From Planctomycetaceae bacterium (lineage in GTDB: Bacteria; Planctomycetota; Planctomycetia; Planctomycetales; Planctomycetaceae): a DNA stretch of 64,000 nt. The stretch covers positions 5,713 through 69,712 of the forward strand of contig JAXMBV010000036.1 of NCBI GenBank assembly GCA_046349695.1. The letters run 5' to 3'. This document shows, one piece after another, positions 5,084-59,910 of the stretch. Position numbers and translations under genes: made by a program. The first letter of the stretch is position 1, and each line of letters begins with the position of its first letter. The notes under the pieces are model-generated. The model had not been told where the DNA came from. It saw only the letters and a program-made list of their open reading frames with translations, and did not search any database.

Positions 5084-5095
5084 GGGAGGAAGTCC

Positions 5096-15704: not shown

Positions 15705-15706
15705 GG

Positions 15707-17167: not shown

Positions 17168-17884
17168 TTAACCATCTGTTTTCGCTGCGTTCGCAGTGGA
17201 TTTACTTTTTCTGTCAGCTTTGCCGGAGTCAGGCTGGCTTTTCATCCACCAAAACAGACTGATGATCAATACCAGCATGCAGATTGTAAAGGTGGCGAGA
17301 CCGGCTTTGTAGAGGCCTTCGCCTGGAACCGGTTCTGCGTCGCCTTCCAGTGGTTCATCGGGGGCTTTCGCAATGGCGTCGTTCTGAATTTGCCGTTCGA
17401 GCTGGCGTGCCCATGCACTTCGAGCCTCCGTCGCGTCATTCCTGCCACCCGGAAGGTCACGACCCAGTTCACGAAATCCGTCCTGGATGTCCCCTATGAA
17501 ACCAAGTGCAAGCGCCAGGTAAAAATGCTCGGCAATGATCGGACTGGATGACGCGACAACGGATTCTCCCTGCTCATAAAATTTCCATGCACGATTCTTC
17601 TGCTCAAAGTAGTCATACTCGAGTGCATAGTTTTCCCATGCTGGCATATGGTTTGTCAGCACTTCATCAGCCCAGTAGATGAGCATGGCTTTCAGGTTTC
17701 GCCACTCAGCTGACGGAAGCCCGGTATTTTCGACGGTGATTCGGTGTTCAATCAGCTGGAGGTCCTGCTTTAGTCGGCGCTGCAGATCCATCAGCTGTGA
17801 ATCGTCGGGTGACTTGTTGTGATTGATCAGCGTCAGCACTTTGAGGAAAAACGGTTCCGTCAGTGTGGCAACAGAGTTTGCCAT
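17168..17884 (-). CDS. tssL: T6SS membrane protein TssL (DotU family), no peptidoglycan-binding extension
   Basis: ATG start. DotU-like blocks: 'AMLIYWADEVLTN', 'YDYFEQKNRAWKFYE', 'AEHFYLALALGFIGD'. There is a single C-terminal TM (GLATFTICMLVLIISLFWWM). Confidence 0.75.
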   Translation of the reverse strand: MANSVATLTEPFFLKVLTLINHNKSPDDSQLMDLQRRLKQDLQLIEHRITVENTGLPSAEWRNLKAMLIYWADEVLTNHMPAWENYALEYDYFEQKNRAWKFYEQGESVVASSSPIIAEHFYLALALGFIGDIQDGFRELGRDLPGGRNDATEARSAWARQLERQIQNDAIAKAPDEPLEGDAEPVPGEGLYKAGLATFTICMLVLIISLFWWMKSQPDSGKADRKSKSTANAAKTDG

Positions 17885-17914: not shown

Positions 17915-19330
17915 TTAGTTGGCTGTGGTTTTGATAGCGAACAGTGAGAACGCCATGCTTGCGGTCCCAGCGCCTTCGCGATCGTCGACGAATGCGACGT
18001 TGGGGGAATTCTGTTCCTTTTCCACATGCCGTTCATTGAACCGAATCCCGAGGTTCAGTGTGCGTTCAACATTGCCCCAGGCTTCGCTGCGTTCGATTCG
18101 GAAATAGTGCCAGTTCTGGCGAGGAAATACGCGAGGAGTGTCAGTCGCGGCAACAATGTTCAACCCCCGACGGCCCCTGCGGAAAATGTCGTCCACTTCA
18201 TCAGAGCTGCCGGCTTTCATATGGAGCTTTCGCTCTGAGAGCATCTCCGCGACTTTCGAACTGCTGAGCAACGATTCTACGCCGATGTAGAAGGCCCAGC
18301 TTGGTTCGAGCCATTCCTGCTGCAGTCGAACCGACATCTGAAGTCCCTGCCAGGCGAACGGGATGCGCACATAATCAGCGTCTGCCCCAATTTCGATATC
18401 AAGGAGTCGGCGAAGTTCCTGAAAACACAGCGCAATGTTGTCATGGTTATAGACAGGCAGTTCACTGAGCTTGCGGCTGCGCCGAAAGATGGCCAGTTCA
18501 CCGGCGGCCCGGCAAAGTTCCATGTAGACGAGGAATGGATGAATGCCGCGATGGAATGGAAGCGGAGCAATGCCGCCAAGCGCGGAATTGAGTGCATGCA
18601 GATGAAGAATACGCTCAAGGTCCTCGCGGTGCCCGCTGCCAAACGAGACTCCGCGATCGATCATCTGACGGGCGAGTTGATCGGCCGTTGCTGACAGCCG
18701 ATCATACACCGATCGCACAAAGTAGCTGACGTAAGGCCAAGCTTCCTGACAGAGTATCGGAGGAATGTAGTCCGGGTCTACCTGCGGAGGAGCCTCCGCC
18801 GTGGTGCCCAGTTTCAGTTGCATGATGGGCAGCGCATCGAATCCCCTGGCGGCTTCATCGCCGATCAGCAATCTTGGATTGGCGCGCCGGAGTTCTATCT
18901 CCTGAGGATTGCCAGCTCGATTTTCGTCTTCAACCTCTTCCCGATGGCGGAGGTACCGACGCGGCGGAGTTTCGGATTCAATGCCGACGTTGGAAATGCC
19001 GCGTCGAAGTTCTGAGATTCCAAGGTAAACCTTAACCCTGGTTTCGGCTGTTCGAAAGATGGTTTTCGGGATCGGTTCCGGAGAGATATGACAGTCTTCC
19101 GGGAACTTCAGCTGAGTTCCATCCTGCAGCCGAATATGACATCGGCTCAACGAGACACGCCAGTTAGCGAGAGCATCCGAATCCACTTCCAGCTGATAAA
19201 GCCCATAGAACGCCGGCGTCAGCCATGATGCCGACTGGTGCAGTGCCTGCTGGAACTGAACTTCAAGGCGCTGAAAATGATGCGGGCGAAGGAAGAGGCC
19301 TTCGTCCCAGAACATAGAATGAGATGCCAT
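17915..19330 (-). CDS. tssK: T6SS baseplate subunit TssK
   Basis: 'MFWDEGLFLRPHHFQ' is the hallmark TssK N-terminus. ATG 19330 is preceded by agaggg. The longest ORF begins at TTG 19378. Confidence 0.85.
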   Translation of the reverse strand: MASHSMFWDEGLFLRPHHFQRLEVQFQQALHQSASWLTPAFYGLYQLEVDSDALANWRVSLSRCHIRLQDGTQLKFPEDCHISPEPIPKTIFRTAETRVKVYLGISELRRGISNVGIESETPPRRYLRHREEVEDENRAGNPQEIELRRANPRLLIGDEAARGFDALPIMQLKLGTTAEAPPQVDPDYIPPILCQEAWPYVSYFVRSVYDRLSATADQLARQMIDRGVSFGSGHREDLERILHLHALNSALGGIAPLPFHRGIHPFLVYMELCRAAGELAIFRRSRKLSELPVYNHDNIALCFQELRRLLDIEIGADADYVRIPFAWQGLQMSVRLQQEWLEPSWAFYIGVESLLSSSKVAEMLSERKLHMKAGSSDEVDDIFRRGRRGLNIVAATDTPRVFPRQNWHYFRIERSEAWGNVERTLNLGIRFNERHVEKEQNSPNVAFVDDREGAGTASMAFSLFAIKTTAN

Positions 19331-19441
19331 CAGAACCCTCTGGATGTTCCGCATACTGCGGAAGAACAAAGTCCACAAAACATCCCTGACCCTGGTCCGC
19401 CGTCACAGTCCCTGACTGGACTGAAAGGCAACGTGCGATGT

Positions 19442-22400
19442 TCAGGGATTGATGATTTCCGTTGGAATTGACAATGGCTGTTTGAGCACGAGAGCACCGT
19501 TTTGCCGAGTTGTCCTCGACGTCAGAGCGATCTCCCGCTCAGCGAGTTTATCGTCCGTCCAGTCACCCTCAAACTCCCACACGACAGATCCACTTTCGAA
19601 TCGCCGACAAACAGAATTCACTCGGTCCGGATAAAATTCCCGGTTTGTCGCATCCCGCTTGCCAATTTCAATTCGGACATCCGGAAGCTCTTTGGCGCTT
19701 TCGGGGCTGCTATCCGGTACATCCAGGCGGATCTGAAGTTTGTCCGGCAGTTTTCGATACCAGAGATCTGCGTTCGGCAGTTCTCCGGATGCAGGATGAT
19801 GTAGGAGCTTGTCGGGACCGTTGTGTTCCACGATCTCGGACCATTTGAAGACATGGTCGGGCCTGGTGCGGGTCATGCGACACACGGCATTGACTCGAAC
19901 ATTGGACCGTGGCCAGTCCTGGAGGCGAATTCTCCACGCGGGTGTTCCGATCAGCATTCCGTTGGAATCCTGAAGCAATCGTTCTTCGGACCGGTGAAAC
20001 TGCTGTCCCGGCGCAGAATCCGCTTCAAACCAGAATTCGACTTCCTCCGGCGTTTTGACTGGCAGGGAACTGTCATCGCCAGTGAGCATCAAATCCACTT
20101 CCAGCGAACTGTCAACGCCGTTTCGTTTTGCTGTGGAGATGGCGGAAAGTCTGGATGGAGTCAGTCGGTCTTCACCACTGCTCCCACGAAATTCTGCTGA
20201 GGCAACAGCTGGAGGGCGCATGAACAGGAACTCATTGTTGCGCCAGTCGACCTGCATTTTCTGAGTATCACCTGCTTTGAATTCCAGAAGAATGTTGTCC
20301 TTTGTTTTGACGTCCTGATACAGCAGCTGGTACGAGTTCCCAGCGGGGATTTGATCATCCATATACTGAAAGCGATTCCTTTCCTTCTCCGCCGTGATCT
20401 GGATGGGTTCCAACGGCGCGTTCTCCAGACGAAACACTGGCGGCTTCCGAAATTCATCAAGAGCCCGAATAATCCCATCATTGTCTTTGGCATCTTTGAC
20501 TGTGCACCACTGTTTGAGCCCATCGCGTGCGAAGAGCTTTGTGATGGACTCTTTTTCTTCGTTGGCATTGATGTCAAACATGATGACCAGGACGTTGATC
20601 CTGCCGCCTGAGCCTTTCAGCAACTGGATCAGTTCATCCATGTTGTCCAGATCGGTGGCTGCACCATCAGTAATTGCCACCACGACACCAGGCTGGTACT
20701 GCAGGTCCTGTGTGATGGCTCTGCACAGCGAATAAAGCAGAGGCGTTGCTCCGAACGGCTGGGACTTCTCAAGTCGCTTCAAAACGTCATCAAAAGCCTT
20801 CTGTCCGTCGTCATTCAGACGCGTGAGCGGAACAAGTTGCTGGGAATCTTTCTGAGGATCGTCGGGTGGTTCAATAGACTGGTCCGGGAACTTGAAGCCC
20901 TGAAAGTGCTTAGCAAAATCCGGATTAGGGCTGCTTAGTCCCAGTCGGTGTCCAAACACTCTGAGACTACCGGGGCAAAATGGATCCTGCAGTGAAATCA
21001 CCTTGCGCATCGCTTCCAGCGCTTCTGCAGCGCGGGTGTTGACGGCATTCCCACGTACAGTTTTCATGCTGCCGGACCAGTCGAATACAAAAGCGATTGG
21101 CCGGGTGTCGGTTGTTTCCAGATACACGGCCCCATTTTCAGGAGGGATTCTGCGAACAACTTCCCAGGAGCGTCCTTCGCGCGGATCAACTTGTATCGCG
21201 CCAAGCTGTTGATGTCGCCCGCGGAAGTATAGAGAGACGCCATAGTCCACTGCCTGTGACAATTCGGCTTCCGTGGCTGATTGAGTGACTTTGAAGTTAA
21301 AGTTGGGCACTGGAATGGACTCCTGCCCAATACTGATGAGAGCAGAAAATTCATCCAGCGGTGTGCCATTCGCCATCAAATGTAAACCGGAAGGAACCGG
21401 ATCCGCAGTTGTCGGCGTGACTAAGAATGTCGCCTTTCCCTGAAACAACTTTGGTTCCGGAAACTCAATGACGCCCCGTCCGTACCATGTTTTGCCATCG
21501 GTCAGTTTGACTACGGAAGGGGCGAGAGGAGACTTGAGTGATGCTGACCATTTGCCAGTGCTGCGGGCCTTCAGTCTCTCCTGGCAGGCGCGATCGTCTC
21601 CAGCCCATTTCTCTGCCGTCTTGAAGTACCAGTCGGGGCTTTTTCCGGAGATCCAGCCGCCTGTCAACAGTCGCTTCACATGTAGGTCACGATAGTCATG
21701 CAGGTATCGATCCAGCAGCGATTTCGTGAGAAGGTTTTTTCGCTTGTCCCACAGAGTCATGCAGTCATAGACTGGCAGGACTCGGCAGAGAAATTCAGCA
21801 TTGCCAAGCTGTTGAGTTTTTGTGGAATCGTCAGGTGGGGTCATGAGTTCTCGCCGGACTGATTTCCAGACATCGCTGATCTCATAACCACGCTCGAAGA
21901 GTTCATCCAGGGTTTTCACAGGGACCTTGTCCTGTGGCAAAAAGGTCAGGATCTGGGCCTTCCAGCGAACGGCACTTTGGTTTCCAGAGGCCAGGAAGCA
22001 TGGCTGGAACGGCGACTCTTCCGCGAGCGGAGTCTTATTCTGAGCCATCGCGATGTCAGTATTTGCCACCATCCTCAGGATGGCGGTACGGTCTTCGGCA
22101 GAGACGAACGTCAGTTTCAGCAAGCCACGAGTGGCCTGATAATGTGCTCGCAGATTTGACCCTGGAATGGCCTTCTTTCCGTCCTCTCCGATGGCGTTGC
22201 TGACCAGCGATTTTCCGAGAGCCTGAGTCTGTCGATACGATTCATCAAGACGTGTTCGCCATTTTGCCAGTGATCCATGATGTTCCTGCAGGGGCGACAG
22301 AGCGTCGGGCACTGGCGTTTGAAAGAGCAACTGTTGCAGTACGCGGGAACAAAGCAAAATTCGGAGCGTTTCGTTCGCAAGTTCTTTATTCAGAACTGCC

Positions 22401-24256
22401 GGCTCGTCTTTTGCAGAAATTTGCTGCCTCGGAGGCATTCGGTCCCACAGCGAACCTGCGTCCCGCCGCTGAAAGTTGTCGCTGAGGAGCAAGGCTGTGT
22501 CAGAGTCTTTCTCGACGTGGGCGGCCGTGCTGCACCATTCCAGCAGACCAGGGATGAGTGGCTGAACATCCGCCAGAAGGCTTTCACTCAACCGGCGTTC
22601 CCGTGCCGTTTCGGTGATCACGTTCAGAATGGTTTCGATGGACTTTGGATCTCCGGAATCCACATTGGGTGCCGCAAAAAACGAATCTTCCACATCGAGG
22701 ATTTCTGTGTCGGCTTTTGACATCAGCGATTCAAGCATGTGAACACCACCGAATGTTTGTGCTGCTGTCCGTTCAGCCCTGGCTCGCTGGTCCGCCAGAA
22801 ATTTCTTTCGTGTTTCATTGTCCGTCGTCCGTGCATCAGCTTCTGTCCGGATGATCTGTTCCCACGAAGGCAATGGTGTCGGCTCAGTATCTCCGGATGC
22901 GTCTTCCGACGAGGCCGTCCAGGAATTGCTGATTCTCGAAAACGCGGGCGTGGACTTGAACCAGATTTTTGGCAATTGTCCGTCAGTGGACAGGTCGGAT
23001 CGCGATTGTACGTCGGTCCCCGGCTGAGTCTTCAGTTCAGCGTCGGCAGCAGTGAGGTAGACTGTTTCGGCGATCCGACACAATGAGTTTGCCGTTTCAA
23101 AATCGCCGGACAGAAATGACTCCTCGGCCGCCTGAAGATAATCGACAGCGATGCGCAGAGGAATCGGAGCGAAGCGGCTGCCACAGCGATCATTAATCTG
23201 CTGGCAGTGTTTCCATGTGGCTTCAATTCGACGCAATGCCGGATCGTCGATCGCAGACAGCAGCTTCTGTTCCGGGGGTGTTCCGGGACTTTTGACGACG
23301 ACAAAGTTTGTGTTCGTGCTGTCCCTGGTAACATGCTGGAGCTCCGGGCCCCGAAAAGCTGTTACCCATTCCTGTGTTCCTGCCTGCAGGTATCCAAAGA
23401 ACTCATTCACGTCAATCAGTTGGTCGGAGTTGGCATCTGCGTCGGTTGAAAGTGCAGCGTTCACAAAGTGTGCGAAAGCTGTCTGTCCCTTGAAGTGGAT
23501 CGAACCTGGCCAGCTGATTTCCTGATCGCCGGAGGCTGCAATCACCGCCAGCCCGGAGATTTCTTCCGGCCACTTAAGGCATTCTGTGATCCCCGTGTTG
23601 CCTGTTGATCCGTACCGCAGAGAGTCTCTCAGTGGAGGAGTATCAAGCAAAAGAAGAACACTGACGTTTTCGCGTTCTTCAACGAGCTTGCTGATGGCTT
23701 CCTTAACATTCTCAAGTGAGACTGTGTCATCGGCTTCCAGATCCGGGCTTCCCCGTCCGCTCAGAACCTGGATTTTGTTTGCAGAATTGCTGACCAGACC
23801 GGTCTGAAGATAGAGAATCAGAATCTCGTGATCACTGTCGCGGTAACGAGTTTCTTCTCGAACCGCGTTGAGTCCTTCGGACCATCGGTCAAACAATGAT
23901 GATCTCGCTGCAGGAACTTTCAGATTTCTGAGCACTGCGTTGTCTGCCGTCAGATCCTGGACGGCGGGTTCCTGGTTGACAAGACCTGGCCACTGGAGCT
24001 GAACGGCGTCGAGAGCCCCGGCCGGATTTCGCACGGTAACGAGATTGAAACTTGTGGCGAATCGGTCTGGTATGACAAAGATCCAGATTGCCAGCCCAAC
24101 AAGTATGAACAGCAACAGCGAGGCAACGGCAATCAATCCCCATCGGAGACTGCCGTCGGCATTTGCTGCCCGCCGGCGCGATTGTTTCCATGCAGGGCTT
24201 TCAGAGGAGTCCGACCGGCCGCGACTTTCTCTTCCGCCTCTCCATCCTCGTGCCAT
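19442..24256 (-). CDS. giant single-pass membrane protein with VWA (MIDAS) domain, T6SS-associated
   Basis: 1604 aa with an ATG start. It has an Arg-rich N-tail, one TM (WGLIAVASLLLFILVGLAIWIFVI), an alpha/beta domain, a long helical region, and a VWA domain. The VWA domain has MIDAS 'FVFDWSGSM' (nt 21065..21091), 'GATPL' and 'ITDGAAT'. The C-terminus is beta-rich. Confidence 0.85.
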   Translation of the reverse strand: MARGWRGGRESRGRSDSSESPAWKQSRRRAANADGSLRWGLIAVASLLLFILVGLAIWIFVIPDRFATSFNLVTVRNPAGALDAVQLQWPGLVNQEPAVQDLTADNAVLRNLKVPAARSSLFDRWSEGLNAVREETRYRDSDHEILILYLQTGLVSNSANKIQVLSGRGSPDLEADDTVSLENVKEAISKLVEERENVSVLLLLDTPPLRDSLRYGSTGNTGITECLKWPEEISGLAVIAASGDQEISWPGSIHFKGQTAFAHFVNAALSTDADANSDQLIDVNEFFGYLQAGTQEWVTAFRGPELQHVTRDSTNTNFVVVKSPGTPPEQKLLSAIDDPALRRIEATWKHCQQINDRCGSRFAPIPLRIAVDYLQAAEESFLSGDFETANSLCRIAETVYLTAADAELKTQPGTDVQSRSDLSTDGQLPKIWFKSTPAFSRISNSWTASSEDASGDTEPTPLPSWEQIIRTEADARTTDNETRKKFLADQRARAERTAAQTFGGVHMLESLMSKADTEILDVEDSFFAAPNVDSGDPKSIETILNVITETARERRLSESLLADVQPLIPGLLEWCSTAAHVEKDSDTALLLSDNFQRRDAGSLWDRMPPRQQISAKDEPAVLNKELANETLRILLCSRVLQQLLFQTPVPDALSPLQEHHGSLAKWRTRLDESYRQTQALGKSLVSNAIGEDGKKAIPGSNLRAHYQATRGLLKLTFVSAEDRTAILRMVANTDIAMAQNKTPLAEESPFQPCFLASGNQSAVRWKAQILTFLPQDKVPVKTLDELFERGYEISDVWKSVRRELMTPPDDSTKTQQLGNAEFLCRVLPVYDCMTLWDKRKNLLTKSLLDRYLHDYRDLHVKRLLTGGWISGKSPDWYFKTAEKWAGDDRACQERLKARSTGKWSASLKSPLAPSVVKLTDGKTWYGRGVIEFPEPKLFQGKATFLVTPTTADPVPSGLHLMANGTPLDEFSALISIGQESIPVPNFNFKVTQSATEAELSQAVDYGVSLYFRGRHQQLGAIQVDPREGRSWEVVRRIPPENGAVYLETTDTRPIAFVFDWSGSMKTVRGNAVNTRAAEALEAMRKVISLQDPFCPGSLRVFGHRLGLSSPNPDFAKHFQGFKFPDQSIEPPDDPQKDSQQLVPLTRLNDDGQKAFDDVLKRLEKSQPFGATPLLYSLCRAITQDLQYQPGVVVAITDGAATDLDNMDELIQLLKGSGGRINVLVIMFDINANEEKESITKLFARDGLKQWCTVKDAKDNDGIIRALDEFRKPPVFRLENAPLEPIQITAEKERNRFQYMDDQIPAGNSYQLLYQDVKTKDNILLEFKAGDTQKMQVDWRNNEFLFMRPPAVASAEFRGSSGEDRLTPSRLSAISTAKRNGVDSSLEVDLMLTGDDSSLPVKTPEEVEFWFEADSAPGQQFHRSEERLLQDSNGMLIGTPAWRIRLQDWPRSNVRVNAVCRMTRTRPDHVFKWSEIVEHNGPDKLLHHPASGELPNADLWYRKLPDKLQIRLDVPDSSPESAKELPDVRIEIGKRDATNREFYPDRVNSVCRRFESGSVVWEFEGDWTDDKLAEREIALTSRTTRQNGALVLKQPLSIPTEIINP

Positions 24257-24312: not shown

Positions 24313-25956
24313 CTACTTGTTCTTCATTGTGTAAAGAATGAAAATCGTCGCGACCGTCGCAGCGCTGGCGGCAACAAACAGAAGAATGGCAAATGAGCGG
24401 GAACGCTGCACACTTCGAACGTAGTGCGGTGCCCACGCCACTTCATTTTGATCCTGCCGAAGTTTGTCCACGACTCCCTCAATGAAGCCCTGTTCTGTAG
24501 CGAGTCTTCCGGTCGCGGCAAAATAAACTCCGTGGAGCCGAAGGGCAGGCTTGATTCCGGCATACAGGCATTCCCGCAGAAGAACCATGATGCCATCTCG
24601 GCGCTGGCCAAGTTCACAGACCATCTGGAACATCTTAGGGTTTTCGCGGTGATCAAGATCGTTTGCAAACCCCGCGTAAACCCAGCGACGAAACCACTGG
24701 AGTCCAGAGTCTGTAATCCACTGGGCCATCGATTCTGTCATCTCCACGCCTTTTGGAAAGCTGGAGCCAGCACGTGTTTTTCTAAGACCCGGGCAAATTC
24801 GCTCCGTTCTCAACAGGAACTCCCGCATTCCTGACAAGTCATCCAGTTCTGTAAACATGGCAATCACAGGAAACTGCAGGTGCAGAACACTGTGAACAGC
24901 GACGAGGTCGTCACGGACTGCCGGAGCCAGCTTTCTGGCATAATCCGGGTCCGAGGCCCACGAGAGCGGGATTGCCTGGAGCATCCCATTGAGGCCACAG
25001 AAAGGCTTTCGAACCAAGTTAATCAACTGACACAGGAATCGTACTCGCCGTATACCAACGAGGCTTTCCAGATCGGTGACGGGCTGAACCTTTTTCTTTC
25101 CGTAACCCTTGAGGCCACTAAAATTGGTGGCGGAAAATGTCTGCATCGCTTTCTTCATACCACCGGGAACCATCGTTCCCATGAAGGAACGCGGAGCCGG
25201 GGCTGATCCGCCCTGGGTCATCGCCAGAACAGGCGCCGCAGAAGGCGCGGGCATCCCTGTCACAGTTCCGGTGAGTGGCCTGGGTTTCTCCGGCATTTGC
25301 CCGGCCTTCATCGTTCCCGTCAGTTTCTCCGAGGCTCCGCTTCGCGAGATTGAAGAATCGCTGTCCGCAACGACCTTTCCCTGCTGGCAAGTTGTGACTC
25401 CCACTCCGGACATACAAAGAAAGATGCCATTTTCGCGAGCGTAAGCCCGAAGTACCGTCGAATTGCGGTCCAGCGGAGGAGCAATAACTTTCCATTCGCT
25501 TCCTGCTCCGTTGTCCGACGAAGTTTCGAATGCTGATCTTTCCTGTTGTGGCGTCATCCCGTTGACAAGGAACAACGGGAGTTCATCGATATAGAGCCGC
25601 TCTCTCTCCAGCGCTGTCAGGATTTCTTTCCAGTCTGCTTCGATATCCGGAAAATCCGATTCCTCTTCGATTCCCAGCAGCCCAATCAGAAAAAGTACAG
25701 TGCGAACAATGCCGTAAAGCAGCAAAAACAAAACACCGCACCAAATGTCACTGATCCACCGAATCTCAAACTTAGGTGGTGTAAAGTGAAGAGAATTGAC
25801 AATGGAATCGCTGAAGATCGCCAGCAGCAGTGTGATCACTGCGATGAAAATGTAGTGAACGAACAGGTAGGATTTGGGGGAGCCAATCGCTGACTTCGGC
25901 ACGACACCAAACAGCCATCGGCACCAGTCGAGCATTCGGTAGAAAAAACTGCCCAT
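24313..25956 (-). CDS. tssM: truncated TssM/IcmF-like protein (N-terminal TM pair + cytoplasmic domain + one TM; no periplasmic domain)
   Basis: Two N-terminal TM helices (about res 31-49 and 70-95). 'ELPLFLVNGMTPQQER' sits at the position of the TssM 'LPWYLxIGxxGSGKT' block, so Walker A is lost. 'RRVRFLCQLINLVRKPFCGLNGMLQAIPLSW' and 'FPVIAMFTELDDLSGMREFL' match the TssM N-domain blocks (LNGvllaiS; PVYvvfTKxDLlxGFxEFF). The final TM FAILLFVAASAATVATIFILY is followed by only a few residues. The call is from motif memory. Confidence 0.6.
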   Translation of the reverse strand: MGSFFYRMLDWCRWLFGVVPKSAIGSPKSYLFVHYIFIAVITLLLAIFSDSIVNSLHFTPPKFEIRWISDIWCGVLFLLLYGIVRTVLFLIGLLGIEEESDFPDIEADWKEILTALERERLYIDELPLFLVNGMTPQQERSAFETSSDNGAGSEWKVIAPPLDRNSTVLRAYARENGIFLCMSGVGVTTCQQGKVVADSDSSISRSGASEKLTGTMKAGQMPEKPRPLTGTVTGMPAPSAAPVLAMTQGGSAPAPRSFMGTMVPGGMKKAMQTFSATNFSGLKGYGKKKVQPVTDLESLVGIRRVRFLCQLINLVRKPFCGLNGMLQAIPLSWASDPDYARKLAPAVRDDLVAVHSVLHLQFPVIAMFTELDDLSGMREFLLRTERICPGLRKTRAGSSFPKGVEMTESMAQWITDSGLQWFRRWVYAGFANDLDHRENPKMFQMVCELGQRRDGIMVLLRECLYAGIKPALRLHGVYFAATGRLATEQGFIEGVVDKLRQDQNEVAWAPHYVRSVQRSRSFAILLFVAASAATVATIFILYTMKNK

Positions 25957-26025: not shown

Positions 26026-29000
26026 TCACGGCAGCTGGTAAACTTTTGGCTTATCCATCATCGTGCCTTTGTCGTCGAGTTTTATTCGCTCGGAACCGCT
26101 GGTCTGGCCTTTGTCTTCCCATTTGACATCATGACTGCCGGCAGAAAGTGGTCCAAACTGCAGGACTTCCCCCGCTTTTGCTGTCTTTGTTTCACGGTCG
26201 ACGCTGGCTTTGAATTCTCCAACGACGCCACTTCCCAGGATGAAAGTGACGTAGAACGGTAACGGTTCCTTTTTCTCCATCGTCGCGGGCGTCGCCGATT
26301 TGACGAAAAACGCCGCATTCCTTTTCTTCTGCAGACCGGCATAGTTTGTCACGCGAACGATAAGTTCCTGTTTGGCCGGACCAGGACCCTCAGGAACCAC
26401 GAATGCCTCCGGGGGAATCGTGAACTTTTCAGATGCCATTCGATCCGATGGCGCTCGCCCGACAAATGCAGTCAGCGGCTTCAAATCTTCCAGTTTGCAT
26501 CCGACTTCGATCATTGCAATTCCTGAATCAGAATCACGAAGCCCCGTGATCTCTCCAATGAGAGGCATGTCTGGAGGAACAGTCCTTATCTCTGTGTTCC
26601 CGGTCGCGGAACCGGAAGCGATTTTGATCTCTCCAACCTCCGGCTCTGTGGCGTCAACCGCCAGTTCGATCGAATCTGTGGTGGACTTCGCAAGGTGTTT
26701 CAGTTCAGCCGTGATTTGGATTCGGCCGGGTTTCAGGGACAATGGTTCTGTTGCATCCCATGGCTCAGTCGTGGTCGTAACATTCCAGCGGCCTTCTTCT
26801 CCGCCAGTCACCTGGATTGCGTGTTCCTTGAAGCGGCTGATGCGACGGGATGCTCCAAGGCGTGTCTGGCTGTTAGTGGAAGGAGATTGCTGTTGCACGA
26901 AGAAATCAATCAGTGCGCTCTGGTTGACTGGTCGCCCCAGTATGTGAACTCGGGGGCGCAGAGGTTTCCCATTCGCCTGTGAATCGAAAATCGTCAGGCC
27001 AGGCAGAGAGTTCTTTGGCGGAACTCCGAAATCACTTAGTTCGGCCACGATAACCGGCGCGTCGTCTTCCCACAGTGGCTTGCAATTCCCGTTTGGCGTA
27101 AGTTTCCAGCCCCAGACAAATGGGTCACCACAGGCACTGACAAAGAACGTCGCTTCGCCCTGCAGCGGCTGAAGGAATTCAAACTCCATCGGGGAGTCCG
27201 CGTTTTGAATATCCTGTCGCTGATCTTCTGACAGCGGAGAAGCCATGTTCGCAAGCAACTGCGGGGAAAAATGCACCTTCACTGGCATGAGGCGGGGAGA
27301 GATCGCAGGAAGGCGCGACTGGCGACGAAACTGCAGACTCAGTTTTCGTTCCGTCGAATTGTAGTTCGCAAGCGGAATCTCAAGGAAGGACTCTGCCGAA
27401 CTGCATCGAGGCACCACTGTAATGATCTTCTCGTCCTGGCTAACCTCCTCACCGGGTGTTTCTGCAGCTTTCACAGAGACAACCCAGCCGTGTGAGAAGT
27501 CAATTCCGCCAGGTGCCGGAGCCTCGGCAGCTGGTGCTGCTGCTCCGGCGACCGGAGGAGGTGTCAGGGGGATTTTGATTTGCCCATCAGCGGGCACATC
27601 AAACGGCACAGCGTTCGGCCAGACCGACTGAAGCTGCCCGTCTTCAGTGATTCTTTTCAACTGCACCATGACTTTTGGGACGGCACCCTTCGTACGGATT
27701 AGGTGAACGCTGAAGTCTGTGGGCGGTTCTTTCCCAAGGTGCGGCGGCAAAGGAAGTTCCCATTGATCGCCGTTTGCGACCAGAATCTCCTGCCCCGATT
27801 TCCTTACAGCAAGCTCCCAGTCAGACACCGGGCTTGGCATGACCTTGACTGATTGTCGAGCCACAACGATGTTGTTTGGGTTGATGAAAAGCAATTGTGT
27901 GTCTATGGCCGTCAGCAGCGGGTCTGAATGCCTGCGGATCAGGTCGACGGATGGGGTTTCCGGATTGCCTGATTCGATGACCTCCAGCCCGGATTCAGCC
28001 GGAGCAAGAAGTTCGATTCGCGGTTTAGCCTGTTTTGAATCCACAGAGAACCCAATCGTGCCTTTGCCATCTTCTGACAAATACAACTGATTCCGGTTCA
28101 CATTGAACGGAGCTGGTGGTGAACGCAGCAGTCCATCGACCCTGGGCCTGGATGCCACTTCCCAGTTGAACGTTTCCCGGTGGGAGAAAAAGCGATTCAG
28201 AAGTGAGATCGCATCCTGAGTCGTGATGAGGCTGCTTTCGGGAGTTGTCGCATTCTGATACTCGTGGAGCGACTGCCAGCCTTCCTTTAGCGCCAACGCC
28301 AGTTCGACCCTCGCTGTTCTCTGTGAAGCGGTTGACTCTTTAGCCTCATCGAATGTGGTCTGCTTCAGCCGATTCCAGTTTTCCCAAATGCGTTCCACAA
28401 CCGGCGACCCGGCGGGAGCAGCGAGAGTCAGTTGCTGCTCCAGGTATCGAGCGGCCCAGTAGCCAGTCCACAGTCCGTTGCCTGACGCTGGCAGATCAGA
28501 TGTTGAAATGGATGTCGCATCCTCAACCGGCGTCAGCCGATTTTCCCCCGCCAGTGAAGGCGGAATCAATTGCCGTTGGCTGATCAACCATCGATCCTTA
28601 GCCCCGTCACCCTGCAGCAATTGTTCCTGAAGTACCTTCACGCTTCGAGTTGCCACAGCCTGATTCGGGTAGTCCCTGGACGTGAGTTCGAAAAGGGCCG
28701 ACTGCAGTTCGTCCGGAGTGGAAACATTCTTGTCCCGCTCAAGGCCTCGAAGTTCATCCAGCTTGAAGGATCGTTCCTGAGACAGAGCAAAGTACTGGAT
28801 CAGATAAGGCAATTCCTGCTGTTGAGCAAGCTGGCTGTCGCTGTCCGACTGAGTCTGCGAAATGCGCGCCTGTAGATCTTTCCAGTCTTCGCGTAGGTCT
28901 GCCACAATCGGCTTTGCCTTTTTCCACTGACCTTCGCCAAGGATCAGCCAGCTCTCTGCGGCAGCAAGTTGAATAAACAGCCGATCAATGGCTGCCAGTT

Positions 29001-30837
29001 GTTCTTTGCCCGCGACCGTTTTTTCCCATGTGGATTTCGAAAGCGGCCTGCCTGCAGTTTCGGGAAAAAGCCCGAGGCTTGCCGCCAGAATTTCATCACG
29101 GATAGAAAGGAGCTCCAGCAGCGTCGGCAGACCTTCGGCATCACCGGCCCACTGCTGATTGGCCATGACGGCATTAATGGTTGCGAGTGTGAGCGGAAGC
29201 GTCTGACTCCCGTGAAGAGAACTACGGACTCGCTGGAAAAAGTCCGCCCGATTCTCCGGTTGCAAATCCCGCAACTGCTGCAACACATACGTTGTCAGCA
29301 TCTCCGGGGGATCGACGCCAACTGGCTTTTGAGACGGTTTTTCTGTTTCTGGCGACGAGGCCTTCAGAAAGTCAGCGCATTGCTTTCGAATTTCCGGTGT
29401 TAGAGTTTCCTTTGCCGCACCGACTCTAAGAAACTGACGCAGCGAGGCGCCACTTTCGCCAATGATTGTGGACTGATACGCAGCCGGATCGTCTGCAAGT
29501 CCGTTGACAAGGCTCTCCGCCTGATCAATCGCACGCTTGCAGTCTGTTTCCTGCTGGTGTCTGAGGAGCTGTTCCGCAAGAAAGACAAGGGCTTCACATC
29601 GCAGCCGCTTCAGGGCAGTGCCAGGTGCCGCAACCTGCCTTGAGCTCCGAAGGTCAGCAATTCGTTTCCAGAGTGCAGCGATTCTCTCGGAAGGCAGAGG
29701 CTCTGACGTTTGCTCTCCCTGCGGCTTCTCCGCCTTATCTGAATTCGCAACAGTCTTTTCATCGGACGGTGCGGACTGACTAACTTTGGGTGGCCAGTTC
29801 GGACGACTGACTCGGTCAAGCAGACCTGTCCGGGGCTCGGGGCCGGCGGTCAGTACAGTAACCGCCTGATCCACGCCATGGATCTTTTGGACCGTCTCCC
29901 TGACCCTTGACTTCAGTTCATCCAGGAAATCAGGCAATGGCGGCGAGTCCATTTCTGCGAGCAGCTGGCAGGCCACATCGCCGAAAACGGTCCCTGAATA
30001 CATGGACGCGATCTTCGACTCGGCTTGCGGCGCTTCAGTTCCTTCCGGCTTTTCAGGATCAGATGTCTTGTCACTCTGCGCGACGAGTTCCCAGCTTCTT
30101 TCTCCGGCAGCGCACGCGGTGACCACGACGAGGTCTTCCCGCTCGAGTTCTTCGACGAGTTGCTTCAGCAAGGCATGGCAGTCGGATCCAAGGCTTGTTC
30201 CTGTGATAGACGGAATCTGGTTCTCCATCTCCAGAAGTATCAGCGTGAGAGTTTCCGGACGCTGCGCATCTGCATTGACAGCGAATTCCTGGAAAAATGC
30301 CTTCGCAGTTCTCCATTCCGTCTTACCGCCGACGTCTTCTGCAAACTCCAGTTCAGTGATGGCACCGACCGAATGGGCTCGGGCCTTCACGGACACATAG
30401 GCCACTACCTGATCCTGCGGTGAGCGGGCTGGGAGCTCAAGATCCTTGTTTCTGCGACACTTCATCGGGACCTGGACGCGTCGCGGCGATGCGGCATGAA
30501 AAGCGTCAAACAATGCATCGAATCTGGACTGATTTGTGCGGAACGACAGATCCATCGAAACTGGAGGGATGGTCGCAGCGATTGACATTGGGTCTGAAGA
30601 ACTGAATGTCACAAACTGGATTTGGACTGCTTCACCGGGCCAAAGCAATCGTACCAGCACTGCAAGCATTGCCACGAGCAGCGCGCTGACTCCAATGATC
30701 CGAGCTTTTCGTGACTTTGCCCTATTGGCTGTTTTTGCTGGTCTCCAGGTTTTTTCACGCCCTGATGACACCGTAACGCTCCGAATCTGTCGGGTTGAAT
30801 TTGCTTCGCCTCGCCACTCCATCGCACAACTGTGCAC
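26026..30837 (-). CDS. giant single-pass membrane protein, T6SS-associated (architecture paralogous to 19442..24256)
   Basis: 1603 aa, starting at GTG 30837 or ATG 30822. It has a basic N-tail, one TM (IIGVSALLVAMLAVLVRLLW), an alpha/beta domain, a long helical region, and a Pro/Ala linker (PPPVAGAAAPAAEAPAPGG). The C-terminal part is beta-rich and Ig-like. Confidence 0.85.
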   Translation of the reverse strand: MHSCAMEWRGEANSTRQIRSVTVSSGREKTWRPAKTANRAKSRKARIIGVSALLVAMLAVLVRLLWPGEAVQIQFVTFSSSDPMSIAATIPPVSMDLSFRTNQSRFDALFDAFHAASPRRVQVPMKCRRNKDLELPARSPQDQVVAYVSVKARAHSVGAITELEFAEDVGGKTEWRTAKAFFQEFAVNADAQRPETLTLILLEMENQIPSITGTSLGSDCHALLKQLVEELEREDLVVVTACAAGERSWELVAQSDKTSDPEKPEGTEAPQAESKIASMYSGTVFGDVACQLLAEMDSPPLPDFLDELKSRVRETVQKIHGVDQAVTVLTAGPEPRTGLLDRVSRPNWPPKVSQSAPSDEKTVANSDKAEKPQGEQTSEPLPSERIAALWKRIADLRSSRQVAAPGTALKRLRCEALVFLAEQLLRHQQETDCKRAIDQAESLVNGLADDPAAYQSTIIGESGASLRQFLRVGAAKETLTPEIRKQCADFLKASSPETEKPSQKPVGVDPPEMLTTYVLQQLRDLQPENRADFFQRVRSSLHGSQTLPLTLATINAVMANQQWAGDAEGLPTLLELLSIRDEILAASLGLFPETAGRPLSKSTWEKTVAGKEQLAAIDRLFIQLAAAESWLILGEGQWKKAKPIVADLREDWKDLQARISQTQSDSDSQLAQQQELPYLIQYFALSQERSFKLDELRGLERDKNVSTPDELQSALFELTSRDYPNQAVATRSVKVLQEQLLQGDGAKDRWLISQRQLIPPSLAGENRLTPVEDATSISTSDLPASGNGLWTGYWAARYLEQQLTLAAPAGSPVVERIWENWNRLKQTTFDEAKESTASQRTARVELALALKEGWQSLHEYQNATTPESSLITTQDAISLLNRFFSHRETFNWEVASRPRVDGLLRSPPAPFNVNRNQLYLSEDGKGTIGFSVDSKQAKPRIELLAPAESGLEVIESGNPETPSVDLIRRHSDPLLTAIDTQLLFINPNNIVVARQSVKVMPSPVSDWELAVRKSGQEILVANGDQWELPLPPHLGKEPPTDFSVHLIRTKGAVPKVMVQLKRITEDGQLQSVWPNAVPFDVPADGQIKIPLTPPPVAGAAAPAAEAPAPGGIDFSHGWVVSVKAAETPGEEVSQDEKIITVVPRCSSAESFLEIPLANYNSTERKLSLQFRRQSRLPAISPRLMPVKVHFSPQLLANMASPLSEDQRQDIQNADSPMEFEFLQPLQGEATFFVSACGDPFVWGWKLTPNGNCKPLWEDDAPVIVAELSDFGVPPKNSLPGLTIFDSQANGKPLRPRVHILGRPVNQSALIDFFVQQQSPSTNSQTRLGASRRISRFKEHAIQVTGGEEGRWNVTTTTEPWDATEPLSLKPGRIQITAELKHLAKSTTDSIELAVDATEPEVGEIKIASGSATGNTEIRTVPPDMPLIGEITGLRDSDSGIAMIEVGCKLEDLKPLTAFVGRAPSDRMASEKFTIPPEAFVVPEGPGPAKQELIVRVTNYAGLQKKRNAAFFVKSATPATMEKKEPLPFYVTFILGSGVVGEFKASVDRETKTAKAGEVLQFGPLSAGSHDVKWEDKGQTSGSERIKLDDKGTMMDKPKVYQLP

Positions 30838-31050: not shown

Positions 31051-31683
31051 CTATTCTGCCGCCTTTTTCGAATCAAACATTGAGACGTTGTGGTTGATCG
31101 CCGGAACCTCGTCTTCAGCAACTTCCGGAACCTCCACTGAGACAGTGATGATGGAACCGGCAGTAATTCCATTCATCGGAATTCGACGGAAGTACTTCTG
31201 ACCATTGATTACAACATCGACTTTGCCTTCGTACTTGTAAGACTTCGCCTGATCCAGAATCTGGACAACGTACTCACGCTTGTTTCCAAGAGACGTCATT
31301 CTCTGGTCGCCCAGCCACACGCCGGCACTTTCCGGAACCTTGAAGATGATCTTTGCCTGAGACAGTTCATAAAGCTTCTTTGACTGGCTCTCGGGTGTCA
31401 GTGATTCAATATCAATCCCTTCTGCGTAGGTGCAGTCCCAGCAGCAGGCATTGATACCACAAGTGGCACAACTGGACAGTCCTCCGCATGTGCCGCACAG
31501 GCCTGTCAGGCTGCAGCCCGAACCGCATGAGTTGCATGGATTTGAACCACAGGAATCACAGGCTGCTATAGGAGCAGCGCAGGACGGGGCAGGGGCACAG
31601 GAGCAGTCGTCAAACGGAGCCGCACTAATCGAAGCGGCCAATGACGATGCCAACAACATCGCTAGGGCGGAAAGTAGACGCAT
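31051..31683 (-). CDS. secreted Cys-rich protein with Planctomycete TIGR03000-type C-terminal domain
   Basis: Signal peptide MRLLSALAMLLASSLAASISA. A ~65-aa stretch carries about 20 Cys (CSCAPAPSCAAPIAACDSCGSNPCNSCGSGCS...CCWDC). Then 'AKIIFKVPESAGVWLGDQRMTSLGNKREYVV...YKYEGKVDVVINGQKYFRRIPMNGITAGSIITVSVEV' fits the TIGR03000 pattern as I recall it. Confidence 0.75.
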   Translation of the reverse strand: MRLLSALAMLLASSLAASISAAPFDDCSCAPAPSCAAPIAACDSCGSNPCNSCGSGCSLTGLCGTCGGLSSCATCGINACCWDCTYAEGIDIESLTPESQSKKLYELSQAKIIFKVPESAGVWLGDQRMTSLGNKREYVVQILDQAKSYKYEGKVDVVINGQKYFRRIPMNGITAGSIITVSVEVPEVAEDEVPAINHNVSMFDSKKAAE

Positions 31684-33548: not shown

Positions 33549-36500
33549 CTACTCCAAATTTGACCCTGGCCAAACGATGACGCGTCCGGCATCATCAGAT
33601 GAAACGATGCGAGCCGGGATGGCTTTCGGTACCGGCTGAAGTGTCGGCTCGATTGGTGCGGCTTTCAATGACGTGATTCGAGTCGTGTGGCCTGCAATTC
33701 TCTGAGACTCAGGAACGGAAGCATCGTTTGGAACTTTCACATCGATCAGCCACGAAGCGACCCCCTCTTTCTCTGTCGCCACGTCCGGCAGACTCCATTT
33801 GATAATGTTCCCTTCGCTTCCCCCTGTTACAAGCCGTGACTCAAACTGCCAGAGAGAAGTAATTCCGCCGGGGACTTCATTTCTGGTACTGACCTGATGA
33901 CGGTTTTCCCGGTCGATCAACGTCGCAACAAGCGATGCTGTTCCATCCGCTTCAATTCGCCAGACACACGCACCAGGCAGCACAACACCATTCACACGTG
34001 CGATTCCGCCGGCCGAGATCATGTGGTTCGTACGGGAAAAGGTGACATCGTTGAACAGCCACTCTGCCTTGGTCTGATCCGTGCCTGTTGTGTCCAGAGA
34101 GACTGTTGGCGGAGGAGTAACGGCGATCGGCACAAGCTCAGACCCGTTGACTGCCCAGCATTCAATGTGACCGCGGCGGCACGCGACGATTCTTTTTGCA
34201 TCCTGGCTCCAGCAGGCAATCGTTGCGGGCTTTCGAATGCCTTCGTCGCCAGCCCATTCCGGCAAAGGCTCGTCCTTCGCCGGAACCACGAGCAGTGGTT
34301 CCTTTGGTGGACCACTTGAAGGCGTCCACGACCACAGTCGCACCTCGCCCGAATCATCAAAACTCAGGAATCGATAGTCATCAGCAGCAGGGCTGAACAG
34401 TGCTCCTGTCAGAGGATGGTTGTGATTGTGATTGAGGTCCATTCGGAACATCGTTCGTCCGCGAGTTGGCGAAGTTTCTTCCGCATCAAAGACTCGGAGC
34501 GTTTCACTGGCAGTCAGCACGAACCTTCGGTCGGACGAAAATGACGAAGTGAGCCGCTGAGAATGATGGGTTCGGAATTCCGCAAGGTGCTTCCCATCTG
34601 CCAGATTCCACAGGTGAGCCTGTCGCCCGCTGAGTGTTGCGATGTGGATTTCACCATCCTGGAGTGTCGGCGACACAGCCGCTCTGGCTGGAAGGCGATC
34701 CAGATAGTAACGGGCGAGACCCGGATCTTCGGACTTCTGAGCTTCGTCAAGCCGGAACGCCGATTCTTTGGCCCAGTTGGTCGCACTGAAGACCAGCAGG
34801 TTTCCGTCAATTGTGAGCAACAGTCGCGAAGAGTCCGGAAACCAGGCGCAGCCTGATCGGGAGACACGGCGAGATTCTTCACGCTTGAAAGAGAACGGAT
34901 GAATCGTGGTTGGAGACGGAACAGCCCCTTCAGCGGCCTTCGAGACGTCGAGGATCTGGATCGACAACTGCGATTTGGCGTTCGGATCATCGGCGTTAGC
35001 AAATGTGATGTCATGGAACGCGATGAACTTTCGGTCGGGAGACCGCTCCATTCGCAGTATGAAACTGCCTCGGTGAATCTTCGTGGGTTTCAACTGATTC
35101 TGATCGATGGTCCAGAGCAAAATGCTGCCGTCAAACCCGGACGTGACGAAGTGTGTCAAATCAATGAAGGCCGCGCCGGAAACTGCGTCGCCATCATGTG
35201 TGCCTTCAGCACTACTAACGACGCTTCCATCGTTCAGATTCCAGAGCACAATGCGACCTCGTCGTCCGCAGGTCAGGGCCAGTGTTGAATCGGGAGAAAT
35301 GGCCACCGCCGTAATTTCGGCACCCTTGTGCTGCCCGGCAAATGTTCGAATCTCTGCCGGTGCAATGGACTCACGGATGTCCTTAACGCTCCACAGAAGC
35401 GCCTGGTGGAGCAGCTTCTCAGGGCCTTTTGCGGTCTTGTCCGGGTTGACCGCTGCACCACCTGCCAGAACCCATTGGCCGTCTTCTGAAATCGCAAAGT
35501 CGCTCGTGGCATATTGTGGAATCAGTCGTGATCTCTCCTGGCCAATGCCATCTTCATCGGCTTTGGCATCCCATACGGAAATGACGCCCAGGTTTTCCGC
35601 TGTGAGAAGCAGGTCGCCATTGGGTGGCAGAAAGCGAATGGTCTTAACTTCCGAATTATGGCCCTCGACAAAATAGTTTCGATCATTCAGCCCCAGCAGC
35701 CAGTCCCCGCGACCGCTCATGCTGAGACTCTTAGTCCCCGTATCAGACTTATATACATGAGCCGCCAGGTCGCTTGCCCCGATCACGATCCGGCTGCCAT
35801 CCTCACTGAAGTCCGCCGAGAACACTCTTCGGAGTGAATCATCCGATGTCTGCCGAAGTTCATAAGGTCGGTTGTTCTCTACAGGCTGTTTCGGGACTTC
35901 ATCAGACGGCAGGACTGCAAAGACGTAACCATTGTTCCTGGTCAGGCGGGAGATTCGCTGGCTGATTCGAACCTCTGAGCGGCTTTGAAGAGACGCTGAG
36001 GAGGGCACAGTCGTGGCTAGCTCTGTGAACGACTCCTGAATCTGCCGAAGCAGGCTGATGTAGTCTTCGTACTCCTGAAGGTTCCAGAAGCAGATCAGGT
36101 TTGACGCTTCAGGTACGCAGACGATCTCCTCTGCCGTCCGGAAGCCAATCGTTCGAACTCGGTTTGCCATCCCCGACAGCAGCTTGCCGTCTTTTGAATC
36201 ACGAAGGCCTTTCGTGCTGCAATTGGTCACTGTGTAGTCGCGAACATCCCACATCTGAATGTTGTTTCGAGTCATCGAGTTTGCGGCTGCAATTCGTGAT
36301 CCATCCTGTGAGATGGCAATCTCAACCGGAAGATCCTTCTTCGTGCAGTGAAAGAACGATTGCTCAGTTGAGACCGGTTCGAATGGAAACGCAGTGGAAC
36401 TGGCTTCCTTTGTTTTGGGAAGTACAGTCATTGAAACAGAACCGTCCCTGGCCTCAATCGCTGCCAACAAATAACTGCCATCAGGGCTTAGCTTCACCTT

Positions 36501-58745: not shown

Positions 58746-59729
58746 TCAGGACCAGAGTCGTTTTCCGGCTGCGATTGACTGTGCCAGTTCCACAAAGGCG
58801 GCACGACGTGCCGGCGCCTTTTCCGGCGACTTGATGACCGATGCGAGGATCACCGAACCGCTGATTGCTTTACCCGGGAGTTCCGGTCCAGGTGGCACCG
58901 CTGGGGCATTCGGGGGAGCCATGCTGCCGTGTGACCAGAAGACCGCAACTCCCGCCCATGCCGCGGCTGTGTTCATTTCTGTGGACTGTGCTAACTCCAT
59001 GATCTTTCGACGCAACGGTTCAGACGGCGCCTTGACCCAGTCAGTTACCTGAGCGATGAGATCGGGATCCTTTGAATCCCTGGCTGCATCGGCCGCTTCA
59101 ATGCAACCAATAGCCCACCAGATCCCAAGTCGCTTCGGGAGAGCCCTCGAAAGAAACTCAAGTGCGTCGTTGTCGGCCCCTTCTTTCAGGCATCTCTGGG
59201 CAAAGGCTTCACAGGTTTCAGTTTCGTGGGGTCTGAGAGTTATGACTTTGCCGAGCTGAAACTGCGCGATGATCTCGGCCGCTCCAGGAACGACAAAACC
59301 CTCCGATCGCAGGCAATCGGCTGGAATTTCTTCTGCTTTGTCCGGCTTCGCACTGTGCTGGTGCTTCGTTTCAGAAGTAACTTCTTTGCGAACAACAGTG
59401 CTGGCAACCTGTGGTGGCGCTGCAGCAGTGCCGCCATCAAGCTCGACAGACAACGTGGTATTGCCACACAGTAGCTTGTCGCCCGGCTTTATGGTGCCTC
59501 TGGTGACCGGTTCCGCGTTGAGAAACGATCCATTAGTGCTCTGCAGGTCTTCGAACTGTAGTTCGGTTCCATGCACACTCAGCCGAATATGGCGTCCCGA
59601 CATCAAGTCATCATCAGGAAACGTCAGGTCAGCAGTCGGAGTTCTGCCGACCACGATCTCCTGACCAGCAGACAAGACGGCAATGTCGCGAAACTCTCGC
59701 CCTGTCTGGACTCTCAGGAACCATCTCAT
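58746..59729 (-). CDS. FHA-domain protein (T6SS Fha/TagH-like) with unassigned C-terminal domain
   Basis: ATG 59729 has a GGAG ~10 nt upstream. The FHA core is 'VVGRTPTADLTFPDDDLMSGRHIRLSVHGTELQFEDLQSTNGSFLNAEPV...GDKLLCGNTTLSVE'. The gene lies directly downstream of vgrG on the same strand. Confidence 0.8.
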   Translation of the reverse strand: MRWFLRVQTGREFRDIAVLSAGQEIVVGRTPTADLTFPDDDLMSGRHIRLSVHGTELQFEDLQSTNGSFLNAEPVTRGTIKPGDKLLCGNTTLSVELDGGTAAAPPQVASTVVRKEVTSETKHQHSAKPDKAEEIPADCLRSEGFVVPGAAEIIAQFQLGKVITLRPHETETCEAFAQRCLKEGADNDALEFLSRALPKRLGIWWAIGCIEAADAARDSKDPDLIAQVTDWVKAPSEPLRRKIMELAQSTEMNTAAAWAGVAVFWSHGSMAPPNAPAVPPGPELPGKAISGSVILASVIKSPEKAPARRAAFVELAQSIAAGKRLWS

Positions 59730-59910
59730 CTTGAAAACTCCAAGCTTGTCTGCTGGATGCGGAAGCGACCGGATGCCGTTCAGCAGCAATCGGAGCGATT
59801 TTTCGTGATCTTGCTGAACGCGGCTGCCAATGATAACCGGAACGCCCGCAAAAATGCCACGCAGTCAGCGACAGACATTGCCGCTCAGAGTTCGCACCTA
59901 ATTCTGAGCA

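Follow-up and report, generated by a model that had tools for sequence, protein, structure and literature searches.

A TssM homolog with no recognisable periplasmic half, and its giant predicted membrane-anchored neighbours, in planctomycete type VI secretion loci

Introduction

How might a type VI secretion system (T6SS) cross the cell envelope if its TssM protein ends at the inner membrane? To our knowledge, the complex of TssJ, TssL and TssM is regarded as the gate through which every T6SS-i crosses the envelope, the unrelated TssNQOPR complex of the Bacteroidota being the only well-studied exception. The question is raised by 64,000 nucleotides of a Planctomycetaceae bacterium (assembly GCA_046349695.1, contig JAXMBV010000036.1, positions 5,713 to 69,712; hereafter the window), which have a GC content of ~54%, find their closest relatives among metagenome-assembled genomes of Planctomycetaceae, and encode a TssM homolog of about half the canonical length, here called short TssM. 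An earlier note on this DNA had read the gene as a TssM reduced to its membrane-anchored cytoplasmic part. We find that the short form is conserved across a large planctomycete family, that it occurs in T6SS loci, and that it is regularly accompanied by one or two giant proteins. With moderate confidence, we interpret these genes as encoding a T6SS membrane complex of a planctomycete type, whose trans-periplasmic part the giants would supply in trans. T6SS genes have been noted before in Planctomycetes, in R. baltica (PMC2660368; PMC5394234), and no description of short TssM or of the giants in this phylum was found in the searchable literature, outside of which lie most subscription journals.

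Results and discussion

Homology to TssM and loss of Walker A

The Pfam model IcmF-related_N (PF14331) matches residues 321 to 481 of short TssM (E 8.9e-10; 38.7 bits against a cut-off of 25), and the same scan gave no match to ImcF-related (PF06761) or IcmF_C (PF06744). TIGR03348 (VI_IcmF) scores 27.5 bits over model positions 201 to 365, far under its cut-off of 388.15. Profile-profile alignment (hhalign) of the short family with six annotated TssMs from proteobacterial plasmids (1115 to 1176 aa), which served as the canonical reference set, returned a probability of 99.1% (E 3.4e-18) in global mode and of 96.9% (E 1.8e-10) in local mode, and covers the canonical proteins from residue 1 to ~465, through their third transmembrane helix (TM3), with nothing aligned beyond. 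The three transmembrane (TM) helices found in short TssM by hydropathy scan (Table 1) agree with helices of an AlphaFold2 (AF2) model of the protein, which has a predicted local distance difference test score (pLDDT) of 81 and a predicted template modelling score of 0.73. After TM3 there follow six residues (YTMKNK) and then the stop codon. The translation contains LNGMLQAIPLSW, FPVIAMFTELDDLSGMREFL and LVNGMTPQQERS. Judged by its sequence, short TssM is therefore a TssM homolog from whose gene the periplasmic half is entirely absent, and the earlier note was right on each of these counts: the relationship to TssM, the two N-terminal helices and the third that are kept, and the missing periplasmic domain.

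The same note had proposed that the Walker A motif is lost, and this too is borne out. In the hhalign alignment LPLFLVNG of short TssM superposes on canonical LPWYVIFG, which puts G133 at the first glycine of Walker A and sets GMTPQQER against canonical GAPGSGKT. The pattern GxxxxGK[ST] was found in the expected region in none of 229 members of the short family. Such a loss is not in itself unusual, one of the six canonical TssMs also being without the motif that the other five carry at residues 113 to 143. At this position AF2 predicts a strand (residues 128 to 132), a three-residue loop and a helix (136 to 148); as modelled, the loop is in the right place and too short for a P-loop. In an alignment of 35 short sequences P127, F129 and G133 are invariant and the site is conserved as LPLFLVNGxTPQQEQS, a degree of conservation that suggests a retained but different role.

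The cytoplasmic domain is modelled as a folded alpha/beta and helical structure that is broken by a low-confidence loop at residues 199 to 264 (pLDDT <50). This insertion of ~65 residues has no counterpart in canonical TssM according to hhalign, and among relatives it varies in length while keeping its motifs. A Foldseek comparison of the model with the PDB yielded faint GTPase-like matches only, none of them significant (best E 1.2), and a PDB sequence search with the short-TssM profile gave zero matches.

Conservation of the short form

A word-indexed search returned 82 homologs of 394 to 584 aa, in all of which PF14331 is the sole recognised domain; several carry the NCBI name "IcmF/TssM N-terminal domain-containing protein". 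Exhaustive profile searching of 1.8 billion cluster representatives with short TssM produced 2897 matches, with 825 clusters at E<=1e-30, and the best 150 of the 2897 measure 325 to 657 aa and nearly all align over most of the profile. Among 229 relatives (325 to 657 aa, median 548) the full-length ones stop at the last TM helix, the median tail past the last hydrophobic segment being one residue, and every member of the 35-sequence alignment ends just past that helix.

Type VI secretion context

In the window short TssM belongs to a minus-strand gene string with gaps of 30 to 213 nt, in the order p210, giant A, short TssM, giant B, TssK and TssL/DotU (Table 1). Past position 64000 the DNA continues (L041; related loci are given such handles where they need to be told apart) with a third Hcp, a PAAR protein, a second VgrG, DUF2169 and Tox-PAAR-like proteins, a GH-E nuclease-type toxin and an ankyrin protein, which is a typical T6SS effector/immunity island. 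The T6SS genes in the window and just beyond it thus indicate that the region belongs to a T6SS-bearing planctomycete.

A genome scan with short TssM gave 32 loci, nearly all labelled Planctomycetota. In the distant loci (22 to 29% identity; Gemmataceae, Pirellulales and others) the homolog has 541 to 587 aa and lies after TssK and DotU. The gene order TssK, DotU, short TssM recurs in L045, L026, L027, L028 and L030, and in L045 it is preceded by a kinase gene and has a PAAR gene nearby. The Pirellulales locus L031 reads TssK/DotU, short TssM, TssA, TssB, TssC, Hcp, TssE, TssF, TssG and VgrG, so that its short TssM (582 aa; PF14331 E 1e-19) stands where tssM canonically does in a T6SS cluster that is nearly complete; it is the sole TssM homolog found in the 21 kb examined. 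We also observed two tandem short-TssM paralogs after TssK and DotU in the Gemmataceae locus L026 (3047-4717 and 5393-7048).

A hidden Markov model (HMM) of the canonical TssM periplasmic domain found nothing in the six-frame open reading frames (ORFs) of the window and 33 related loci (~0.6 Mb). No TssJ candidate was seen in the window or the related loci by a weak test, consisting of a three-sequence HMM and a lipobox scan, and within that limit the earlier note's remark that the window holds no TssJ-like gene stands. The note had also pointed to a second, full-length tssM or a tssJ as something to be looked for, and none was found in the window, in the 33 related loci or in the L031 cluster. 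We consider it very likely that the short protein is the genuine TssM of a T6SS.

Two giant partner proteins

Giants A and B each have a single TM helix following a strongly positive Arg/Lys-rich tail with a conserved W-R motif, and the positive-inside rule alone would place ~1540 residues of each protein in the periplasm. Their N-terminal ~430 residues are homologous to one another (hhalign 99.7%, E 5e-26). Giant B contains a von Willebrand factor type A (vWA) domain, which the VWA_2 model detects in 16 of 18 orthologs (best E 5.7e-12), the window copy falling below the Pfam reporting threshold. The residues of the metal-ion-dependent adhesion site (MIDAS; D1059, S1061, S1063, T1171 and D1197) are invariant, while the cysteine pair C1000 and C1026 is nearly so. 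Giant A matches no Pfam family and offers weak beta-sandwich hints only. A caspase-like identity for the shared N-terminal module was considered and dropped, having no Pfam support at E<=1. PDB sequence searches with both giants gave zero matches, and word-indexed homolog searches, limited by their word pre-filter, returned only 2 and 4 proteins.

In 25 of 25 close loci giant B is the next gene downstream of short TssM, and in 19 loci giant A is found upstream of short TssM. The ATG of giant B overlaps the stop codon of short TssM (as ATGA or TGATG) in 14 of the loci parsed and additionally in L001, and stop-start overlap of this kind is the usual sign of translational coupling. The association extends to short TssMs that are only 22 to 24% identical to that of the window. 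In L031 the neighbouring giant-B homolog (1555 aa; 99.2%, E 4e-19 over 1303 columns) has one TM helix and a DCSAS MIDAS and lies two genes from TssK; in L045 a giant-B homolog of 1708 aa (E 2e-39) occurs with one protein of 773 aa that carries the shared N-terminal module and another of 633 aa that matches the giant-A C-terminus; and in L046 giant-B pieces come right after short TssM (E 3e-31). Further giant pieces were found in L026, L027, L029 and L032, giant A being represented by split homologs in L045 and L026 and by a homolog of its C-terminus in L027. That the same modules fuse and split beside the same gene across deep divergence argues well, on comparative grounds, for one functional unit.

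Giant A, short TssM and giant B form a triad whose T6SS flanking genes differ between genomes. TssK/L genes flank it in the window and in L002, and VgrG, FHA and Hcp genes do so in L010, L013, L015, L016, L022 and L025, the FHA and DUF6931 protein adjoining giant B in L010, L013 and L022. A ClpV/TssH-like double AAA+ ATPase is encoded directly upstream of p210 and giant A in L003 (922-3654) and L017 (1675-4494). The small protein p210, in which the match to the TIGR03000 planctomycete domain is sub-threshold, is kept upstream of giant A in L002, L003, L004 and L016.

Another set of genes recurs around the triad. Near the FHA, VgrG and Hcp genes of the window lie genes for a TolC-like outer-membrane protein (56246-58663, plus strand), a 605-aa protein (53837-55654), an HlyD-like adaptor (52680-53804) and an M50-HlyD fusion (50467-52659). 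In L009 (2-4883) and L015 (2208-4631 and 16981-19946) the triad has orthologs of the TolC-like, 605-aa and HlyD-like genes at its flanks. The envelope part of this kind of T6SS may include such proteins as further components.

Large Ser/Thr kinases are likewise seen repeatedly beside TssK, TssL and short-TssM genes, an FHA protein also being present. The kinase-WD40 gene of the window is syntenic in L002 and L016, and kinase genes adjoin TssK in L045 and L027. Control by threonine phosphorylation through the conserved TGT motifs of the short-TssM loop (residues 199 to 264) is one possibility.

A proposed membrane complex and its alternatives

In canonical systems TssK contacts the cytoplasmic domains of TssL and TssM (PMC10781749). 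In the arrangement that we propose, short TssM and TssL would together make up the platform, at the inner membrane and in the cytoplasm, that recruits the TssK baseplate, with a short-TssM cytoplasmic domain that would no longer bind nucleotide. The ~700-aa arm of TssM, which canonically reaches TssJ and forms the channel, would be replaced in trans by giants B and A. Each giant would have its anchor next to TM3, with TM helix and W-R tail docking on the ring of short TssM and TssL, and the periplasmic bodies of the giants would span the often enlarged planctomycete periplasm, while the MIDAS of giant B might bind an acidic residue of a partner or of an envelope component. The topology of the giants, their physical interaction with short TssM and their role as channel or spacer are what we infer here; that they are periplasmic partners of short TssM at all we put at about even chances.

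Several observations weigh against this proposal. Neither the window nor its L041 continuation showed the sheath and baseplate genes of this genome, and the search for a full-length tssM or a tssJ covered the window and the 33 related loci rather than whole genomes. Giant A is missing beside short TssM in L006 and L007, and no giant occurs within the available flanks of L028, L030 and L033. From an AF2 model of giant B residues 405 to 1604, built on 3 sequences and with a mean pLDDT of 36.9, no more can be taken than a coarse order of parts, running from a helical through a beta and an alpha/beta region to a beta-rich end. Finally, the giants show no detectable likeness to the TssM periplasmic domain or to TssJ (hhalign against canonical TssM, 0.5% and 0.1%), and because of this their replacing the missing half is argued from context only. 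The simpler idea of a split TssM, in which the giants are themselves the missing periplasmic domain, was rejected at the sensitivity available, given these hhalign values, the lack of any IcmF Pfam match in 35 giant orthologs and the empty six-frame HMM search.

The alternative that survives best, which we nevertheless regard as unlikely, is that short TssM and TssL merely tether the baseplate, that there is no dedicated trans-periplasmic channel, and that the giants are co-regulated proteins with another role such as adhesion, envelope tethering, sensing or vWA-based control of triggering. It would account for the dissimilarity of the giants to the TssM periplasmic domain and TssJ and for the three loci in whose available flanks no giant homolog occurs, and vWA domains are generic protein-binding modules. 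It sits less well with the persistence of giant B beside short TssM over very deep divergence, with genes that often overlap stop-to-start, as such kept adjacency and overlap are typical of subunits of one complex, or with the fact that both giants are membrane-anchored with conserved cytoplasmic tails.

Alternatively, a full-length TssM and a TssJ encoded elsewhere could build the complex, the short protein being an extra regulatory or scaffolding copy. The restriction of our searches to loci and the lack of a sheath and baseplate core cluster in the window leave room for this, and a precedent exists in Citrobacter rodentium, where a truncated variant, TssM1[1-807], is made beside the full-length form by transcriptional frameshifting and is needed for function (Gueguen et al., 2014; PMC4256274). 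Like short TssM, the C. rodentium variant is a natural TssM without the C-terminal TssJ-binding domain; however, it keeps most of the periplasmic region and its gene also yields the full-length form, neither of which is true of short TssM. For short TssM, moreover, there is neither a slippery tract nor an in-frame continuation, and the short form is the fixed state throughout a family that spans the phylum; the logic of a slippery site does not apply where the gene that follows has a conserved start of its own in a different frame. Set against an accessory copy are also the occupation of the tssM slot in L031 by a short gene that is the only TssM homolog found there, the TssK, DotU, short TssM order in five further loci, and the failure to match a periplasmic domain anywhere in the ~0.6 Mb of related loci. 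We think this explanation quite improbable.

Slightly more doubtful still is a distinct envelope machine that has borrowed an IcmF-N-like adaptor and lies near T6SS genes by chance. The triad is away from TssK/TssL in many Planctomycetaceae loci, the Fuerstiella locus (L001) has no T6SS gene within 10 kb of it, and its neighbours in L009 and L015 include TolC-like and HlyD-like genes. Chance proximity is nevertheless hard to reconcile with TssK/L, a ClpV-like gene or VgrG, Hcp and FHA genes flanking the triad in different genomes, and in other orders short TssM sits inside T6SS clusters together with a giant-B homolog. A pseudogene, frameshift or slippage product, or an assembly artefact leaving a remnant of a full-length tssM, as the halved length might suggest, has next to no probability; a frameshifted pseudogene fragment was what the earlier note had named as a reason to abandon its reading. 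The short form is discounted as a remnant because hundreds of sequence clusters agree in its length and in where it ends, with strongly conserved motifs and a confident AF2 model, because an identical protein is present in two independent assemblies, and because giant B begins at its own conserved start in another frame.

We therefore keep to supply of the trans-periplasmic part by the giants as our preferred interpretation. More tentatively, at a little short of even confidence, these loci may encode an undescribed T6SS trans-envelope complex, of which the inner half would be TssL with a periplasm-less and nucleotide-blind TssM and the outer half two giant bitopic paralogs, possibly joined by the TolC-like and HlyD-like neighbours, and which would be suited to a wide and variable periplasm. 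The planctomycete periplasm is unusually wide and variable.

Features and other genes of the window

The features of the short-TssM gene, of its partners and of the T6SS-related genes of the window are collected in Table 1.

Table 1. Positions in the window of short TssM, the giants and T6SS-related genes
Feature	Position	Strand	Evidence or remark
Short TssM, 547 aa, ATG start: TM1, TM2, cytoplasmic domain, TM3, stop	24313..25956	-	ORF, PF14331, hhalign, conserved family
TM1 (aa 31-49)	25810..25866	-	Hydropathy scan; AF2 helix
TM2 (aa 75-93)	25678..25734	-	Hydropathy scan; AF2 helix
Degenerate P-loop position LPLFLVNGMTPQQERS (aa 126-141)	25534..25581	-	Aligns on canonical LPWYVIFGAPGSGKT
Probably disordered insertion (aa 199-264), low confidence, conserved TGT and GTMxPGG motifs	25165..25362	-	AF2 pLDDT, alignment
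IcmF-related_N homology region (aa 321-481)	24514..24996	-	Pfam, TIGR03348, hhalign
TM3 (aa 523-541)	24334..24390	-	Hydropathy scan, AF2 model, alignment
Giant B, 1604 aa: Arg-rich tail with W-R motif, TM helix (aa 44-62), N-terminal module, helical region, vWA, beta-rich C-terminus	19442..24256	-	
vWA domain of giant B (~aa 1050-1250), MIDAS motif DWSGS	20507..21109	-	
Giant A, 1603 aa: tail (TWRP), TM helix (aa 47-65), giant-B-like N-terminal module, helical region, beta-sandwich-rich C-terminus	26026..30837	-	
TssK, baseplate subunit	17915..19378	-	PF05936 E 9e-71; TIGR03353 237.6 bits against cut-off 100
TssL/DotU, short form, one C-terminal TM helix (aa 194-212), no peptidoglycan-binding domain	17168..17884	-	PF09850 E 4e-12, above Pfam cut-off
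p210, secreted small protein: signal peptide, Cys-rich stretch, TIGR03000-like domain	31051..31683	-	Heads the gene string
Ser/Thr kinase with WD40 repeats, 1954 aa; possible regulator, system membership uncertain	33549..39413	-	Pkinase E 1.5e-35
FHA and DUF6931 protein, resembles T6SS FHA protein TagH	58746..59789	-	Domain match
VgrG spike protein	59911..61986	-	Phage_GPD E 3e-84
Hcp copy 1	62112..62597	-	PF05638 E 1e-34
Hcp copy 2; true start probably Met at 63339	62854..63405	-	PF05638 E 9e-36

Three further observations concern other genes of the window. In a 3092-aa ORF (39622-48900, minus strand) without a convincing Pfam family, a unit of 798 nt (266 aa) is repeated in tandem at least five times, with 99 to 100% identity between the copies (41679-45170), and the GC skew of this region is strongly positive. 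Directly downstream of tssL lie, as a pair, the genes of a DUF790 protein and of an XPB/Rad25-like helicase that has an XPB damage-recognition domain (14487-17065, minus strand). A HerA-like DUF87 ATPase (2449-4233, plus strand) adjoins an ADP-ribosylglycohydrolase (4283-5197, minus strand).

Relation to known systems and significance

With canonical T6SS-i TssM (IcmF family, TIGR03348/COG3523), which forms the inner-membrane core of the TssJ-TssL-TssM complex, short TssM shares the layout of TM1, TM2, cytoplasmic domain and TM3, the neighbours tssK and tssL and, in L031, the position within the cluster. It differs in having no periplasmic domain, no Walker A, an insertion of ~65 residues and a TIGR03348 score below the cut-off, and its loci differ in having no detected TssJ and giant single-TM proteins alongside.

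Two other systems invite comparison. Legionella IcmF is full-length, with a periplasmic domain. In the type IVB system of that organism IcmF and DotU act as a membrane-stabilising module (Boyer et al., 2009; PMC2660368), and like the planctomycete pair they stand outside the canonical T6SS membrane complex, although their context is type IV whereas that of the planctomycete genes is T6SS. The T6SS-iii of the Bacteroidota uses a lineage-specific membrane complex of TssN, Q, O, P and R (2024; PMC10781749), and is thus a precedent for a non-proteobacterial T6SS that has swapped its trans-envelope complex for lineage-specific membrane proteins while keeping TssK and the baseplate. The likeness is a functional analogy only, and T6SS-iii is without TssL and TssM, whereas the planctomycete system retains TssL and the inner part of TssM alongside unrelated giant proteins.

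A large and conserved lineage that keeps TssL together with the inner half of TssM, and in whose examined loci neither the periplasmic arm nor TssJ was detected, would indicate that TssM can be divided, its cytoplasmic and membrane half being able to function as a unit of its own; the giants are specific candidates for a periplasmic half of a new kind. Planctomycete T6SSs may be miscounted or misclassified by annotation pipelines in which a full-length TssM or a TssJ is required. The arrangement also bears on how a contractile injection system may cross an atypical Gram-negative envelope.

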